Positions 16,047-58,166 of a stretch of DNA of 64,000 nucleotides are shown here, piece after piece. This DNA comes from a virus. Its lineage: Duplodnaviria; Heunggongvirae; Uroviricota; Caudoviricetes. Location of the stretch: IMG/VR virus record IMGVR_UViG_3300017989_000052; one strand, 5' to 3'. Under the pieces are notes generated by a model. It made no database searches. It was not told the origin of the DNA and saw only the letters and a program-made list of their open reading frames with translations. Position 1 is the first letter of the stretch, and each line of letters begins with the position of its first letter. The translations under genes were made by a program, and so were the position numbers.

Positions 16047-16071
16047 TCACCTCATAGGGGTGGGGCCACTT
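16047..16071 (+). other. 9-bp stem hairpin immediately 5' of tRNA-Leu (possible processing or terminator element)
   Basis: GGCCTCACC / GGTGGGGCC stem around a TCATAGG loop. Confidence 0.3.
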
Positions 16072-16154
16072 GCCGGGGTGGCGAAATTGGCAGACGCGAC
16101 AGATTTAAGATCTGTTTCCCTTTGGGAGTGAGGGTTCAAATCCCTCCCCCGGCA
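16072..16154 (+). tRNA. tRNA-Leu (anticodon UAA), type II
   Basis: Hand-folded cloverleaf: acceptor GCCGGGG/CCCCGGC, anticodon arm ACAGA-TTTAAGA-TCTGT, long variable arm, T arm GAGGG-TTCAAAT-CCCTC, discriminator A; CCA not encoded. Confidence 0.8.
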
Positions 16155-16163
16155 TGTGAATAA

Positions 16164-16418
<255 letters not shown>

Positions 16419-16430
<12 letters not shown>

Positions 16431-17285
16431 CTTAAATTTATTTGGATTATGTTCTTCTCTATGGCAATTCCCACAAAGAAGAATACATTTTTCTAATTCT
16501 TTTCCCAACTTTGCTTTATTTTTATAATTACCAAGCAAGATGTTAATTTCTGAATCTTTTTCTCCATTATGGTGAAATTCTAAAATAGTTTTATTTACAG
16601 GCTTTAACCCACATTTGGAACATTTATTCCCAAGCTTGATTAAGGCTTCTTCTCTTATTTGTAACCTTCTAATTTTGCTTTGTAAATGAACTCTCTTATT
16701 ATCTGTTTTTCTTTTACATTCTTTCGAACAAAATTTGCTTCTAGCTTTAGGAAGTTTTACACCACAACAAACACATTTACCTTTTTCTTGGAAATATAGA
16801 GAATTCAGTTCCTCCTTAAGAAGTGCCCCTAGTTTTCCGGAGTGTATATTTCGATGACAATTTACGCAAGCTAAAATACACTTCTCCAACTCCTTTAAGA
16901 GAATTTCTCTTTTTCTATCTAATTTATCTGCGGACAGATTGAATTTTTTGCCTCCCCCTTCTTTATGGTGAAATTCTAACGCAGCGTAATTTTTATCGTA
17001 ACCACAAATAGAACATTTTCCCCCTAAAATGTTAATTAGCTCTATCCTTTTTTCCAAACGCCGCTTATTTTGATGGTCAACTATTTTTCTTAGGTTCCTT
17101 TTATTAGATAATTTCATCCGGCACTTTTCGGAGCAATATTTTCGTTGCTGCCCTTTTAGGGCTTTACCACAAACTAAGCAGTTTGTAGCTTTACAAAAAT
17201 CACAAATTTTTCGATACGAGGTTTTCCACCCCTCGGTAATAAATATTTGATTACAAGAAGTACATTTTCTTTTATATTTTTTCAT
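16419..17285 (-). CDS. HNH homing-type endonuclease (two HNH/zinc-finger modules)
   Basis: Repeated CxxC...EFHH...N...CxNCH motifs (CSICGYD...ALEFHHKEGGGKKFN...CVNCHRNIH and CSKCGLK...ILEFHHNGEKD...CGNCHREEH); start taken at the MKKYKRK ATG; the stop overlaps the tRNA-Arg 3' end on the opposite strand; markedly AT-rich compared with neighbours. Confidence 0.7.
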
Positions 17286-17336
17286 GATTCCCCTTCCTTC
17301 TAAAAAAGATAGAGTCATAAAATATTAACCGGAACA
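16434..17336. mobile_element. HNH endonuclease cassette bounded by a 14-bp direct repeat (TACCGGGTGTGCTT at 16420-16433 and 17337-17350)
   Basis: The left repeat copy is the 3' end of tRNA-Arg; the AT-rich insert is consistent with a mobile insertion that regenerates the tRNA 3' end. Confidence 0.45.
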
Positions 17337-17516
17337 TACCGGGTGTGCTTCGCGTACGTGTTTGCTCTCGGGAGTTTCCCGAAAAATCTCTTTTATAGAC
17401 ATACTTCGTAACTTTTACCCCTTGGGGTAAAAAATTGTGTGTCTATTATATTATTTTATCTATAAAAGATAAAATTGAGGAAACTTCGACGGCAAACACG
17501 TATAACAACTTTAGGT

Positions 17517-17768
17517 AGGCTATGATCAAGCTTCCTTCTACAATCTTTAAATGACTTTAGCTTGGTCGCTTCCCTACCCATAAACCTATCATTTTTAAGT
17601 GCAGGCTATGAGTGGTCTTCCTTCTAAATTTCACTCAATGAAGAAAATTAGGCCATTCGCTTTCCTGCACTTTTCAATTTTCGAGGGCTATGGATAAGCT
17701 TCCTTCTACTACTTAACTCAGCCGCAAGGCTGAATTCATACTTAGCTTTCCGCTTTCCCTCAACAAAA
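17517..17768 (+). repeat. three tandem ~84-bp repeats (units start at about 17517, 17603, 17686), each beginning AGGCTATGR..AGCTTCCTTCTA and ending GCTTTCCCTNC
   Basis: Read directly from the sequence; they lie in the 465-bp non-coding leader of the 722-aa gene. Confidence 0.5.
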
Positions 17769-20820: not shown

Positions 20821-20829
20821 ATCCTGGTT

Positions 20830-20922
20830 GGGGGACTAGCTCAATTGGTAGAGCAGCGGGTTTATGCCCCGTGTTAGTGTCTGATAAACACAAGGTTCTG
20901 GGTTCGAGTCCCAGGTCCCTCA
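20830..20922 (+). tRNA. atypical 93-nt tRNA-like gene with two candidate anticodon hairpins (GCGGG-TTTATGC-CCCGT = UAU, or GTGT-CTGATAA-ACAC = GAU, Ile)
   Basis: Acceptor GGGGGAC/GTCCCTC, D arm GCTC-AATTGGTA-GAGC, T arm CTGGG-TTCGAGT-CCCAG, discriminator A; 42 nt lie between the D and T arms instead of about 22. Confidence 0.5.
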
Positions 20923-20936
20923 TAAGAAAAAGAAAA

Positions 20937-45576: not shown

Positions 45577-45641
45577 AAAGATTTGACAACGTAGTTTTCA
45601 TCTCGATATACTTCTAAGATTCTTTCTCTACGTTGTCGGTT

Positions 45642-45713
45642 AAGCCGGTAGCTCAATTGGTTAGAGCGTCTGTCTTCCGGCGGATGATATGGGTTCGAAC
45701 CCCACCCGGCTTA
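45642..45713 (+). tRNA. atypical 72-nt tRNA-like gene; no canonical 7-nt anticodon loop, the best fold gives an 8-nt loop TCTTCCGG
   Basis: Perfect 7-bp acceptor AAGCCGG/CCGGCTT, D arm GCTC-AATTGGTTA-GAGC, T arm ATGGG-TTCGAAC-CCCAC, discriminator A; the anticodon stem pairs only as GTCTG/CGGAT with 2 G·U pairs. Confidence 0.45.
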
Positions 45714-45763
45714 TTTCAAAAAATTCCGGTTCACCTAACTTGGGTTTCTTAGGGTTAAAACAA

Positions 45764-54315: not shown

Positions 54316-54334
54316 TAATATATATAAGGTAGGC
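54316..54334 (+). promoter_or_regulatory. conserved promoter-like motif TAATATATATAAGGTAGGC
   Basis: Near-identical copies at 56156-56176 and 58960-58980, each 15-35 nt upstream of a plus-strand ATG. Confidence 0.45.
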
Positions 54335-57755: not shown

Positions 57756-57931
57756 AAAGAAAATAAATTTCGAACATTTTTCCCAAGATTTCTTTTATAT
57801 ATTAGGTACCAAAGGGGGGCAGCAAACGCCCACCAGTAATACCCGGTAGCCGGGATTAAAACTGAGGCATTGCTTGTTACGGCCATGTGCCGTACGGCAC
57901 TTTCTGGAGCCCAAAAGCTCCTGCCTCAGAT

Positions 57932-58016
57932 GGGTGCGTCGCTCAGTTCGGCCGAGAGCACTGGCCTTTTAAGCCAGCGGAGTAATCCCACGTAGGTTCG
58001 AATCCTACCGCACCCA
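57932..58016 (+). tRNA. tRNA-Lys-like (anticodon UUU) with atypical 11-nt D loop and 14-nt variable region
   Basis: Acceptor GGGTGCG/CGCACCC, anticodon arm CTGGC-CTTTTAA-GCCAG (canonical Lys loop), T arm GTAGG-TTCGAAT-CCTAC, discriminator A. Confidence 0.6.
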
Positions 58017-58166
58017 TGAGCGATAGTTTAATAGGTTGTGGTTCTAGCTTAACCAAAGCATTCGGCTTAATCCCGAAAGATTTGGGTTAGAGTCCCAAGA
58101 CCACAGTCCGCAAAATACCAGGCACTCGCCAGCCTGGAGATGCAGGTTCAAATCCTGCTCGCTCAA
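58017..58166 (+). ncRNA. 150-nt composite tRNA-like RNA: 7-bp acceptor TGAGCGA (58017-58023) / TCGCTCA (58159-58165) and T arm GCAGG-TTCAAAT-CCTGC, enclosing an embedded tRNA-like unit (58037-58106)
   Basis: Hand-folded. The embedded unit has acceptor TGTGGTT/GACCACA, anticodon arm TTCGG-CTTAATC-CCGAA and T arm TTGGG-TTAGAGT-CCCAA. The outer unit has a 6-bp hairpin CCAGGC-ACTCGCCA-GCCTGG in the anticodon-arm position. Confidence 0.35.

Follow-up and report, generated by a model that had tools for sequence, protein, structure and literature searches.

Homing endonucleases spread via break repair, normally leaving no duplication, and the F-Tfl endonucleases of phage T5 are of the HNH type. The genes for F-TflI and F-TflII, as well as that for F-TflIV, are placed in the tRNA cluster of T5 (PMC2330249). 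The gene for T4 SegB is also located in a tRNA cluster, and SegB recognises the T-psi-C motif and drives the inheritance of the tRNA region (PMC2330249). Characteristic of SegB are the near-100% inheritance of itself and the neighbouring tRNAs and a statistical association with tRNAs across phages (PMC2330249, PMC13096335), and where SegB breaks are combined with microhomology, tRNA-segB units become rearranged (PMC13096335). Also described are collaborative and trans homing (PMC2988022, PMC3984707), as with the psbA intron of cyanophage S-PM2 and F-CphI, or T4 mobE and the defunct I-TevIII intron. The host genes of these pairs are protein genes, and, according to a 2014 review, phage introns in tRNA genes were unknown at that time (PMC3984707). 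A further class comprises integrase-dependent islands and prophages at tRNA 3' ends, in which a direct repeat reproduces the tRNA 3' end and the tRNA is kept intact.

The locus described here lies in a 64,000-nt stretch of phage DNA, analysed as a whole and called the window. It contains a tRNA-Arg gene interrupted by a group I intron and, on the opposite strand, an HNH endonuclease gene that overlaps the 3' end of the same tRNA; a 14-bp direct repeat of that end brackets the endonuclease gene. This arrangement resembles the T5 F-Tfl loci in that free-standing endonuclease genes are found among phage tRNA genes, and the segB loci of T4 and T6, where the gene lies between tRNA genes and the end of its ORF adjoins a tRNA (PMC2330249, PMC13096335). 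It differs from the F-Tfl loci, as these have been described, in the intron of the neighbouring tRNA and the tRNA-end duplication. SegB has a GIY-YIG fold, in contrast to the HNH fold in the window, and its rearrangements amplify whole tRNA-segB units, whereas the 14-bp duplicate brackets the nuclease gene only. Our preferred reading, to which we assign a probability of roughly 0.6, takes the cassette for a free-standing homing-endonuclease gene (HEG), which encodes a single-chain tandem HNH nuclease from a family specialised on phage tRNA genes, and the repeat for a one-off scar. The features of the locus are as follows.

16071..16155, plus strand: tRNA-Leu(UAA), directly upstream of tRNA-Arg (ARAGORN and Rfam)
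16164..16200, plus strand: tRNA-Arg(UCU) exon 1, acceptor 5' strand through U36 (spliced fold in ARAGORN; the Rfam intron alignment begins inside the exon)
16201..16393, plus strand: ORF-less group I intron of 193 nt, between anticodon position 36 and position 37 (Rfam RF00028)
16394..16430, plus strand: tRNA-Arg(UCU) exon 2, to discriminator G73, CCA not encoded (tRNA reconstruction)
16419..17285, minus strand: tandem-HNH homing-endonuclease gene, 288 aa from MKKYK (PHROG HNH families, motifs, composition)
about 16791-17285 and about 16419-16790, minus strand: N-terminal and C-terminal HNH modules, respectively (comparison of the halves)
16420..16433, plus strand: direct repeat copy 1, comprising TAC as the last 3 nt of the T stem, CGGGTGT of the acceptor 3' strand, the discriminator G at 16430 and the CTT trailer
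17286..17325, minus strand: leader of the HNH gene with RBS GAAGGAAGGGG and a predicted hairpin enclosing the RBS and AUG (sequence; RNA fold)
17337..17350, plus strand: direct repeat copy 2, an exact match to copy 1
17365..17386, plus strand: candidate terminator hairpin (TCGGGA-GTT-TCCCGA), then A/T-rich sequence (sequence; 9-bp helix in RNA fold)

Regarding the tRNA genes, tRNA-Leu(UAA) and tRNA-Arg form a two-tRNA cluster, hosted by a 335-kb phage. ARAGORN misses tRNA-Arg on the unspliced sequence, and the joining of 16164-16200 to 16394-16430 yields a canonical tRNA-Arg(tct) cloverleaf with the same program. The intron matches RF00028 over 16188-16386 with 87.6 bits (gathering score 50) and an E-value of 5.6e-21; its ends were set by the tRNA reconstruction, with a U before the 5' splice site and a G before the 3' splice site. 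The position between 36 and 37 is the usual intron site in bacterial tRNA-Arg (PMC13011429). The HNH gene is intergenic and lies outside the intron.

The window contains exactly two copies of the repeated 14-mer, TACCGGGTGTGCTT, with no third copy even when two mismatches are allowed. Read on the minus strand, copy 1 spells out the four final codons (K-H-T-R) of the HNH ORF together with two bases of its TAG stop codon (16419-16421), and in other convergent family members the last codons of the HNH gene likewise run into the tRNA end. Beyond the 14 bp the repeat extends imperfectly to 18/21, just 4 of the 7 positions upstream of copy 2 being matched; this extension brings no statistical gain. 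The segment separating the copies is 903 bp long and has a GC content of 0.319, compared with 0.422 for the window. GC drops sharply on the left side of the cassette, where one repeat copy ends right at the composition break. The right flank is an AT-rich spacer (GC 0.38), with no sharp GC step. Both copies are present at 100% identity in an independent Logan assembly (L010), and the repeat is therefore not an assembly artefact. The HNH gene is the only ORF of at least 60 aa lying entirely inside the cassette. Searches of the cassette against Pfam and PHROGs revealed no integrase, recombinase or transposase, and no terminal inverted repeats were found at its two termini. Thus, the repeat coordinates, the assignment of copy 1 to the T stem, acceptor 3' end and trailer of tRNA-Arg, and the low-GC segment with a double-HNH protein on the opposite strand, all proposed in a first-pass annotation made from the sequence alone, agree with the present analysis, the tRNA reconstruction bearing out the second of these.

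The terminator-like hairpin starts 15-20 nt past copy 2, and by analogy with a hairpin located just after tRNA-Asn at a related locus (L058), it is a candidate for the original terminator of the tRNA-Leu/tRNA-Arg unit, from which the cassette would now separate it. A second perfect hairpin is found at 17413-17432, and scans for sigma-70 promoters and terminators gave background levels only.

The HNH protein is a tandem duplication of a [zinc ribbon + HNH] unit, the halves being 42% identical (E 8e-15); an alternative ATG at 17318 would give 299 aa. PHROGs labels it as an HNH endonuclease (phrog_2255, E 2.6e-32) over two stretches, and Pfam PF01844 matches each half marginally, at 21.0 and 17.9 bits, just under the cut-off of 21.4. 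The two C-x2-C...HH...N...C-x2-C-H...H motif sets show no variation among 20 homologs, and, as judged from these residues, the HNH (beta-beta-alpha-metal) catalytic motif appears intact in both halves. The closest solved relatives by sequence are McrA and the En domains of group II introns. An AF2 model (pLDDT 85, pTM 0.73) gave only non-significant Foldseek matches against the PDB, though nearly all of these were HNH-type nucleases. The ORF is the lowest in both GC (0.323) and GC3 (0.263) among the 64 ORFs of the window (z = -2.5), and has no paralog elsewhere in it; the cassette is compositionally foreign. As the closest homolog is merely 38% identical, no donor can be named. The minus-strand RNA fold of 17270-17440 has an energy of -43.6 kcal/mol (z = -3.3). 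Homing-endonuclease genes of T4 are known to be controlled through sequestration of the RBS (PMC2988022), and the predicted leader hairpin may by analogy play the same role here.

The family to which this protein belongs is tied to phage tRNA genes. At least 455 family loci in IMG/VR were confirmed by tblastn, and of the 80 included in the tRNA-distance count, 55 lie no more than 600 bp from a tRNA; searches with Rfam brought in a tRNA at L032, L033 and L053 and a tmRNA at L080. Antiparallel pairs of the HNH gene and its nearest tRNA are convergent in 12 cases and divergent in 1. The HNH stop codon lies 0-9 nt from the tRNA 3' end, or within the tRNA, at eight of these loci (L021, L025, L029, L034, L039, L071, L074 and L053) as well as in the window. 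Family HNH genes are often placed between two tRNAs, and each of the three closest double-HNH homologs adjoins tRNAs in arrays. The nearest relatives of the window protein adjoin tRNA-Met, and a tRNA-Arg-specific lineage containing it was not found. Among cultured phages, annotated homologs are also located within the tRNA clusters of the jumbo Yersinia phage fHe-Yen9-04 and of the T5-like Salmonella phage OSY-STA, in the latter between tRNA-Lys and tRNA-Pro. The OSY-STA homolog has a single HNH and is ~37% identical over one domain, unlike the tandem duplicate in the window.

None of the ~84 other family loci, including the 12 convergent ones, carries a tRNA-end duplication flanking the HNH gene, and this also holds for the double-HNH members L015, L018, L019 and L059. 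The long flank repeats seen at family loci are only the T-loop consensus common to two different tRNAs. At L089, two tRNA-Asn genes flanking the HNH gene were considered as a parallel duplication and rejected, the second copy being unconvincing. The 14-mer itself is absent from all unrelated family loci and is not an unrelated recurrent motif, a case that the first-pass annotation had named as refuting its proposal. That annotation had further taken the tRNA-end repeat as the signature of a mobile element that targets a tRNA gene and regenerates its 3' end. A mobile insertion at a tRNA is upheld, targeting and regeneration are plausible but unproven, resting on one junction, and the repeat fails as a signature of the element type.

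Several relatives show the family to be mobile. In L059, tRNA-Asn contains a group-I-like intron of ~207 nt and is separated from tRNA-Glu by an additional family HNH gene. The related L058 lacks this intron and this gene, with identical tRNA exons, and the two represent the filled and empty alleles of a family member. Near-identical HNH blocks also occur in unrelated flanks, in L047 and L095 (96% over 781 bp) and in L026 and L037. The proposal that the tRNA-Arg locus bears selfish elements stands, since the ORF-less intron and the HEG occur there together, a combination also seen in L053 and L059; phage tRNA genes with a group I intron beside a family nuclease are found in the window, L053, L059 and L034. 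At L071, a nuclease of the same HNH lineage as that of L053 lies beside an intron-less tRNA-Arg(UCU). Therefore, the intron is not required for coexistence, and strict collaborative homing is weakened.

The empty site corresponding to the cassette would be tRNA-Arg followed directly by CGCGTACGTG / CGCGTACG, with the junction sequence ...GGTTCGAATCCTACCGGGTGTGCTTCGCGTACGTG..., and an excised cassette would have the circle junction ...TATTAACCGGAACATACCGGGTGTGCTTAAATTTATTTGG.... The junction pattern is absent from GTDB genomes and IMG/VR. An INPHARED blastn search gave tRNA and intron-core matches only, an IMG/VR scan with the tRNA 3' half gave 5 matches, all unrelated tRNAs, and a JGI metagenome scan gave 3 matches to unrelated bacterial tRNAs. 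Loci encoding the neighbouring proteins are only 41-43% identical and lack tRNAs, the closest homolog of the TerD-like neighbour is 54% identical and belongs to a non-syntenic phage, and exact-protein look-ups returned the same phage only. Thus, no close relative of the window phage was found in the searched collections, which is why no empty site, tRNA-Arg followed by CGCGTACGTG as the first-pass annotation had predicted for related phages, could be found, and the insertion and its direction are read from one genome.

Under the preferred reading of a free-standing HEG, we infer the activity and target of the nuclease, the direction of transfer, the position of the break and the hitch-hiking of the intron by analogy with described systems. 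As in T4 SegB and T5 F-Tfl, the nuclease would cut alleles that lack the HEG, either within the tRNA gene or beside it, and break repair would use the HEG-carrying genome as template and copy the HEG and adjoining tRNA sequence. Only 26 nt separate the proposed break from the ORF-less intron, which may then be co-converted and hitch-hike, by collaborative or trans homing. The 14-bp repeat would fall outside this normal mechanism, as the scar that a single ectopic event left when the gene entered the lineage. The recipient tRNA-Arg would have been broken at about 16419/16420, at the T-stem/acceptor boundary, and the left end repaired from a donor in which a like tRNA 3' end is fused to a convergent HNH gene. 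Copy 1 would now come from donor DNA, and so would the four final HNH codons and the functional 3' end of the tRNA. On the right side there would be no homology, and therefore the new DNA would have been attached by non-homologous joining to the broken end of the recipient itself. We propose that copy 2, which precedes the old terminator hairpin, is what remains of this end, the displaced original 3' end and trailer of the recipient tRNA-Arg. The duplicated CTT trailer counts against this model, as it requires the donor and recipient trailers to be the same, which for an unrelated donor locus would be a 1 in 64 coincidence. As the repeat is absent from ~84 related loci and the cassette has neither a recombinase nor terminal inverted repeats, the repeat is read as the scar of a single event rather than as a family signature or an att site.

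Other origins of the repeat were weighed against this reading. Copy 2 could be the remnant of a second tRNA gene, if the HNH gene had taken the place of the downstream member of an ancestral tandem tRNA-Arg(UCU) pair, or of a local duplication of the 3' region, except for its final 14 nt. Tandem tRNA-Arg(tct) pairs do exist in related arrays (L019), the frequent placement of family HNH genes between two tRNAs is in line with this origin, and the weak extension of the repeat into the T loop could be decayed homology. However, identity falls abruptly from 14/14 to 4/7 to nothing, the conserved GGTTCGAAT T loop is absent, the identical CTT trailer suits duplication of the same locus and not a paralog, and other family loci show no such remnant, leaving this origin unlikely. 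It is very unlikely that the repeat is a coincidence and the HNH gene merely lies beside a tRNA. In the window, exact direct repeats of at least 14 bp are indeed frequent, with 26 pairs where 15 are expected and, within 1.5 kb, 6 where 0.73 are expected, and the first-pass annotation was a search for patterns, but a repeat bracketing one ORF reached 14 bp in only 6 of 3000 trials (~0.002) when mismatched flanks of related tRNA-rich loci served as the null. Base composition puts the chance at about 2e-5 to 3e-4, and the analytical probability for a repeat around this ORF is 1e-4 or less. In addition, the repeat is GC-rich in AT-rich surroundings, and its coincidence with the composition break points in the same direction.

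Three further origins assign the repeat a function or a mechanism. A tRNA-3'-end direct repeat around foreign DNA is the classic attL/attR picture, which would make the cassette a mini integrative element with a 14-bp core and a recombinase encoded elsewhere. The 903 bp hold no integrase and no second ORF, att-like repeats are found in no family relative, and a 0.9-kb element with a nuclease as its sole gene suits homing; integrase-dependent islands and prophages differ from the cassette in the same points and in that the cassette resides in a phage genome, and this origin appears highly improbable. Alternatively, the two HNH domains, whose catalytic motif sets are both conserved, might nick the strands ~14 bp apart at the tRNA end, with ligation of the cassette and fill-in duplicating 14 bp, a length within the range of transposon target duplications. 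The missing terminal inverted repeats and the lack of flanking duplications in the other members, the double-HNH ones included, speak against such a target-site duplication, and to our knowledge there is no precedent for HNH homing enzymes inserting DNA by a staggered cut and fill-in; we consider it extremely improbable. A domesticated nuclease would be kept because the recombination or amplification that it provokes at the tRNA locus counters host defences directed at tRNAs, with the repeat as microhomology substrate. SegB of T6 acts in this way via tRNA/segB microhomology (PMC13096335), and the HNH family is similarly tRNA-linked. Nevertheless, a repeat-bounded 917-bp unit without a complete tRNA would not raise tRNA dosage on amplification, and a selfish gene that arrived recently is suggested by the low GC and the patchy distribution, so that domestication is distinctly unlikely here.

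We consider it likely that the locus represents a fairly ordinary homing-endonuclease insertion of a known kind, as exemplified by T5 F-Tfl and T4 SegB, with an unusual junction, and not a new type of tRNA-targeting element. As a single locus it carries little weight, being another instance of a homing-endonuclease gene within a phage tRNA cluster, and it illustrates how a nuclease gene can enter a new tRNA locus with the tRNA left undestroyed. The tRNA linkage of the HNH clade resembles that recently shown for SegB. Tentatively, and at odds well below even, the window may be one case of a large, essentially undescribed guild of (often tandem) HNH endonucleases on phage tRNA genes that co-mobilise ORF-less group I introns into these tRNAs, their ectopic jumps from one tRNA gene to another occasionally regenerating the tRNA 3' end and leaving duplications. 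The co-variation of intron and HNH gene between L058 and L059 resembles the collaborative and trans homing pairs mentioned above, which differ in that the host gene here is a phage tRNA and in that the nuclease of L071 has no intron beside it. If the guild exists, it would represent collaborative homing in a class of host genes for which the 2014 review knew no phage introns. Experimental confirmation would extend collaborative homing to phage tRNA genes and would provide an HNH counterpart to the SegB-type nuclease-driven remodelling of phage tRNA arrays.

The 903 bp between the two copies of the direct repeat have a GC content of 31.9%, as against 42.2% for the window, and their single substantial ORF lies on the minus strand among neighbouring genes that are nearly all on the plus strand, which bears out the low-GC segment encoding a double-HNH protein on the opposite strand described in the first-pass annotation. 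The features of the locus are as follows.

16188-16386: group I intron match by Rfam (87.6 bits; gathering score 50); the intron of tRNA-Arg(UCU) is 193 nt, without an ORF, and lies between positions 36 and 37
16419-17285, minus strand: tandem-HNH ORF, 288 aa from MKKYK, its start preceded by GAAGGAAGGGG
16420-16433: copy 1 of the direct repeat TACCGGGTGTGCTT
17337-17350: copy 2 of TACCGGGTGTGCTT, an exact match

The HNH ORF is compositionally foreign, ranking lowest of the 64 window ORFs in GC (0.323) and GC3 (0.263), with z = -2.5. Its product is an internal tandem duplication with halves 42% identical (E 8e-15), each of which has an HNH domain preceded by a Cys-rich zinc-ribbon segment. Two stretches of the protein matched HNH endonuclease families in PHROGs (best E 2.6e-32), and the halves alone scored 21.0 and 17.9 bits with Pfam HNH against a cut-off of 21.4. 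Alignment with 19 homologs sharing the two-domain architecture revealed no variation in either motif set (C-x2-C, HH, N, C-x2-C-H, H). Among solved structures, the protein is closest by sequence to McrA and to the En domains found in group II intron proteins. A confident AlphaFold model (pLDDT 85, pTM 0.73), searched against the PDB with Foldseek, gave only non-significant matches, nearly all of them HNH-type nucleases. With two intact catalytic centres in one chain, the enzyme may be able to cleave both strands. A predicted hairpin encloses the ribosome-binding site and AUG of the HNH gene, resembling the way in which translation of T4 endonuclease genes is controlled (PMC2988022). The cassette gene is very probably a free-standing homing gene. 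Free-standing endonuclease genes in phage tRNA clusters are an already known type; F-TflI, F-TflII as well as F-TflIV reside in the T5 tRNA cluster (PMC2330249), and the window represents a known situation.

ARAGORN called no tRNA at the site of copy 1; joining 16164-16200 to 16394-16430, on either side of the intron, yields a canonical 74-75-nt tRNA-Arg(UCU). The junction between positions 36 and 37 is the usual intron site in bacterial tRNA-Arg (PMC13011429). None of the tRNAs of this phage encodes CCA. Copy 1 consists of the final three T-stem nucleotides, the acceptor 3′ strand, the discriminator G (16430) and a CTT trailer, and it also holds the final four HNH codons; the TAG stop occupies 16419-16421, and the ORF overlaps tRNA-Arg by 12 nt. 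A Logan assembly of the same phage (L010) breaks inside the tRNA-Arg intron, its position 1 corresponding to window 16295, as would be expected if similar intron copies exist elsewhere in the 335-kb genome. ARAGORN also reported a 95-nt tRNA-Ile(tat) at 20829-20923, an 87-nt tRNA-Lys(ttt) at 57931-58017 and, at 45641-45714, a "tRNA-???" whose anticodon was called as two bases. All three reach the Rfam tRNA gathering score and may contain small insertions.

The window belongs to a 335-kb contig (ENA ERZ27256770 k141_416325), and no close relative of the phage, and hence no empty-site allele of the kind named in the first-pass annotation, was found in INPHARED, IMG/VR, JGI metagenomes or GTDB genomes. 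The conserved TerD-like neighbour has its best homolog, at 54% identity, in a non-syntenic 327-kb phage. In the 327-kb phage ZHAN22-2 scaffold_1 (L011, 10520-11989), RtcB is called as two adjacent ORFs of 181 and 242 aa, approximately 200 nt apart, which points to an intervening element such as an intron in this huge, distantly related phage. Upstream of the TerD-like gene, the 435-bp spacer contains three copies of GGCTATGR-N5-CTTCCTTCTA (17518-17540, 17604-17626 and 17686-17708; spacing 86 and 82 bp), to which the motif is confined in the window (0.09 expected). Each full copy opens a mini-ORF of the form M-x-x-L-P-S (MIKLPSTIFK*, MSGLPSKFHS... and MDKLPSTT*), and a partial, weaker fourth copy at 17284-17304 lies across the ribosome-binding site and start of the HNH gene, on the opposite strand. 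Leader peptides, operators and remnants of earlier insertions are possible identities for these copies. At 54317 and 56159, 1.8 kb apart, AATATATATAAGGTAGGC recurs as an exact 18-nt direct repeat and may be a recurrent promoter or RBS-type motif.

The nearest homologs of the HNH protein are just 30-38% identical, and all three double-HNH homologs examined adjoin tRNA genes directly in phage tRNA arrays. A profile-guided IMG/VR scan returned 80 loci of this family (L021-L100), in 55 of which ARAGORN places a tRNA no more than 600 bp from the HNH match; by our calculation, approximately 10% of window positions are equally close to a tRNA. Rfam added tRNAs in L032, L033 and L053 and a permuted tmRNA in L080. 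The nearest tRNA is tRNA-Asn(GTT) in 16 and tRNA-Met(CAT) in 8 of the 55 tRNA-adjacent loci, well above their shares of all tRNAs in the surveyed loci (29/366 and 28/366, respectively); the preferred site of SegB in T2L is likewise in tRNA-Asn (PMC2330249). Antiparallel pairs of HNH gene and tRNA are convergent in 12 cases and divergent in one. In the convergent loci, the HNH stop codon lies 0-9 nt from the tRNA 3′ end or inside it, as in the window (L021, L025, L029, L034, L039, L071, L074 and L053). In cultured phages, homologs annotated as HNH endonuclease occur within the tRNA clusters of Salmonella phage OSY-STA, which is T5-like, and of the jumbo Yersinia phage fHe-Yen9-04. Phage-encoded tmRNA genes, too, have family HNH genes as immediate neighbours: the permuted one in L080 (2694-3041, 104.5 bits) and a standard one in L031 (3084-3621, 66 bits).

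The mobility of the family is illustrated by two related phages with approximately 83% nucleotide identity. In L058 (1969-2084), an intact tRNA-Asn(GTT) is followed by 43 nt with a terminator hairpin and then tRNA-Glu. In L059 (1811-3039), identical tRNA-Asn exons are split at 35/36 by a group-I-like intron of approximately 207 nt, and the tRNA-Asn terminator is separated from tRNA-Glu by an additional double-HNH gene of 252 aa. The intron was identified by nhmmer against the window intron (E 1.7e-6) and by its precise position; an Rfam scan of L059 did not reach E 0.001 for it. L059 has both intron and nuclease gene and L058 neither, forming a natural filled/empty pair. The layout of the window recurs in L053 (2210-3060), in which a tRNA-Arg(UCU) bearing a group I intron at 33/34 (Rfam, 75.6 bits) converges on a family HNH gene whose ORF enters the tRNA 3′ end, in antisense, for approximately 39 nt. 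The same HNH lineage lies beside an intron-less tRNA-Arg(UCU) in L071, indicating that the intron is not obligatory; the stretch shared by the two loci, 355 bp at 72% nucleotide identity, stops precisely at the anticodon. L034 contains a group I intron (59 bits) located at a nearby tRNA position, and L015 a sub-threshold one. Near-identical HNH blocks in unrelated flanks, namely the 781-bp block shared at 96% identity by L047 (2281-3061) and L095 (2282-3061) and that shared by L026 and L037, indicate recent transfer. A tRNA-like 5′ half (GGACCTATAGCTCAG...) opens the L047/L095 block, and the T arm and acceptor 3′ strand that match it (...GGTTCAAAGCCCTCTAGGTCCA) close the block; between them lie a tRNA-like element of approximately 80 nt and a family HNH ORF. 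Rfam finds no group I intron in the block, only a weak tmRNA-like match, and the HNH gene may be nested in a split tRNA or tmRNA-like gene.

Exact direct repeats of at least 14 bp are as such not rare in the window (26 pairs vs approximately 15 in Markov shuffles; 6 vs 0.73 expected within 1.5 kb), and a repeat by chance is one of the rival explanations. This one brackets a particular ORF, one copy ending exactly at the composition break and the other lying 51 nt upstream of the HNH start codon. Only 6 of 3000 null trials (mismatched flanks, 77 related tRNA-rich loci) gave a repeat of at least 14 bp, and our composition-based estimate for a bracketing repeat is 1e-4 or lower; we therefore conclude that the repeat is a real duplication, and chance is quite unlikely. 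The 64-kb window contains no further match to TACCGGGTGTGCTT at up to two mismatches, and no unrelated family locus has the 14-mer, so that the recurrent motif considered as a possible refutation in the first-pass annotation was not encountered. The boundary is sharp, an imperfect extension to 18/21 being not significant. An assembly artefact was rejected because both copies are present in the independent Logan contig L010; the window sequence recurs identically in independent Logan and JGI assemblies. The repeat is likewise not a family signature, and it is neither an att core accompanied by an integrase of the cassette nor the footprint of a transposon, since in no other family locus, including the 12 convergent ones and the filled site of L059, is the HNH gene flanked by a duplicated tRNA end, and the cassette contains no recombinase or transposase gene and no terminal inverted repeats. 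Longer flank repeats elsewhere are only the T-loop consensus of two different tRNAs and the 10-bp promoter-like GGTATAATCC in L059. Integration by a recombinase acting in trans is slightly less probable even than chance, and a true target-site duplication, for which the tandem nuclease would have to cut with a stagger of approximately 14 bp, is the least likely of all. Of the original proposal, the duplication and a mobile insertion at a tRNA hold, targeting of the tRNA with regeneration of its 3′ end is plausible, and the duplication as the signature of an element type does not hold.

The preferred explanation, with a probability of roughly 0.6, is that a rare ectopic event brought in a free-standing HNH homing-endonuclease gene. 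The ORF ends inside the tRNA 3′ end, in convergent family members and at copy 1 of the window, and 15-20 nt past copy 2 there is a hairpin that looks like an old tRNA terminator; a break-repair history is therefore the most economical. The recipient tRNA-Arg would have been broken near 16419/16420, and repair on the left side would have copied the donor tRNA 3′ end and the HNH gene. With no homology on the right side, the new DNA would have been joined to the recipient's own broken end, which would persist as copy 2. The tRNA is still functional, which would explain survival of the event, and the intron, 26 nt from the proposed break, would be co-converted; the HNH gene would later spread by ordinary homing. 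This particular scar mechanism for the repeat is tentative and rather doubtful. The anatomy of the locus, the HNH identity of the protein, the foreign composition, the tRNA linkage and the uniqueness of the repeat are demonstrated; nuclease activity, target, position of the break and transfer direction are inferences. Copy 2, beside its terminator-like hairpin, could also be the remnant of a second tRNA-Arg copy, which is improbable. SegB, which recognises the T-psi-C motif, drives the tRNA region's inheritance (PMC2330249, PMC2988022), and its statistical tRNA association and part in microhomology-mediated rearrangement were reported in 2026 (PMC13096335); a domesticated SegB-like role of the cassette gene, with the repeat as recombination substrate, is somewhat more improbable still.

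What is new in the window is a distant family gene with a tandem-domain architecture and an unusual junction. The family level is judged more interesting: this HNH clade is linked to tRNAs much as SegB is. Group I introns are found here in phage tRNA genes, where a 2014 review regarded introns as unknown (PMC3984707), and the phage pair with co-varying intron and nuclease gene is also of interest for the family.
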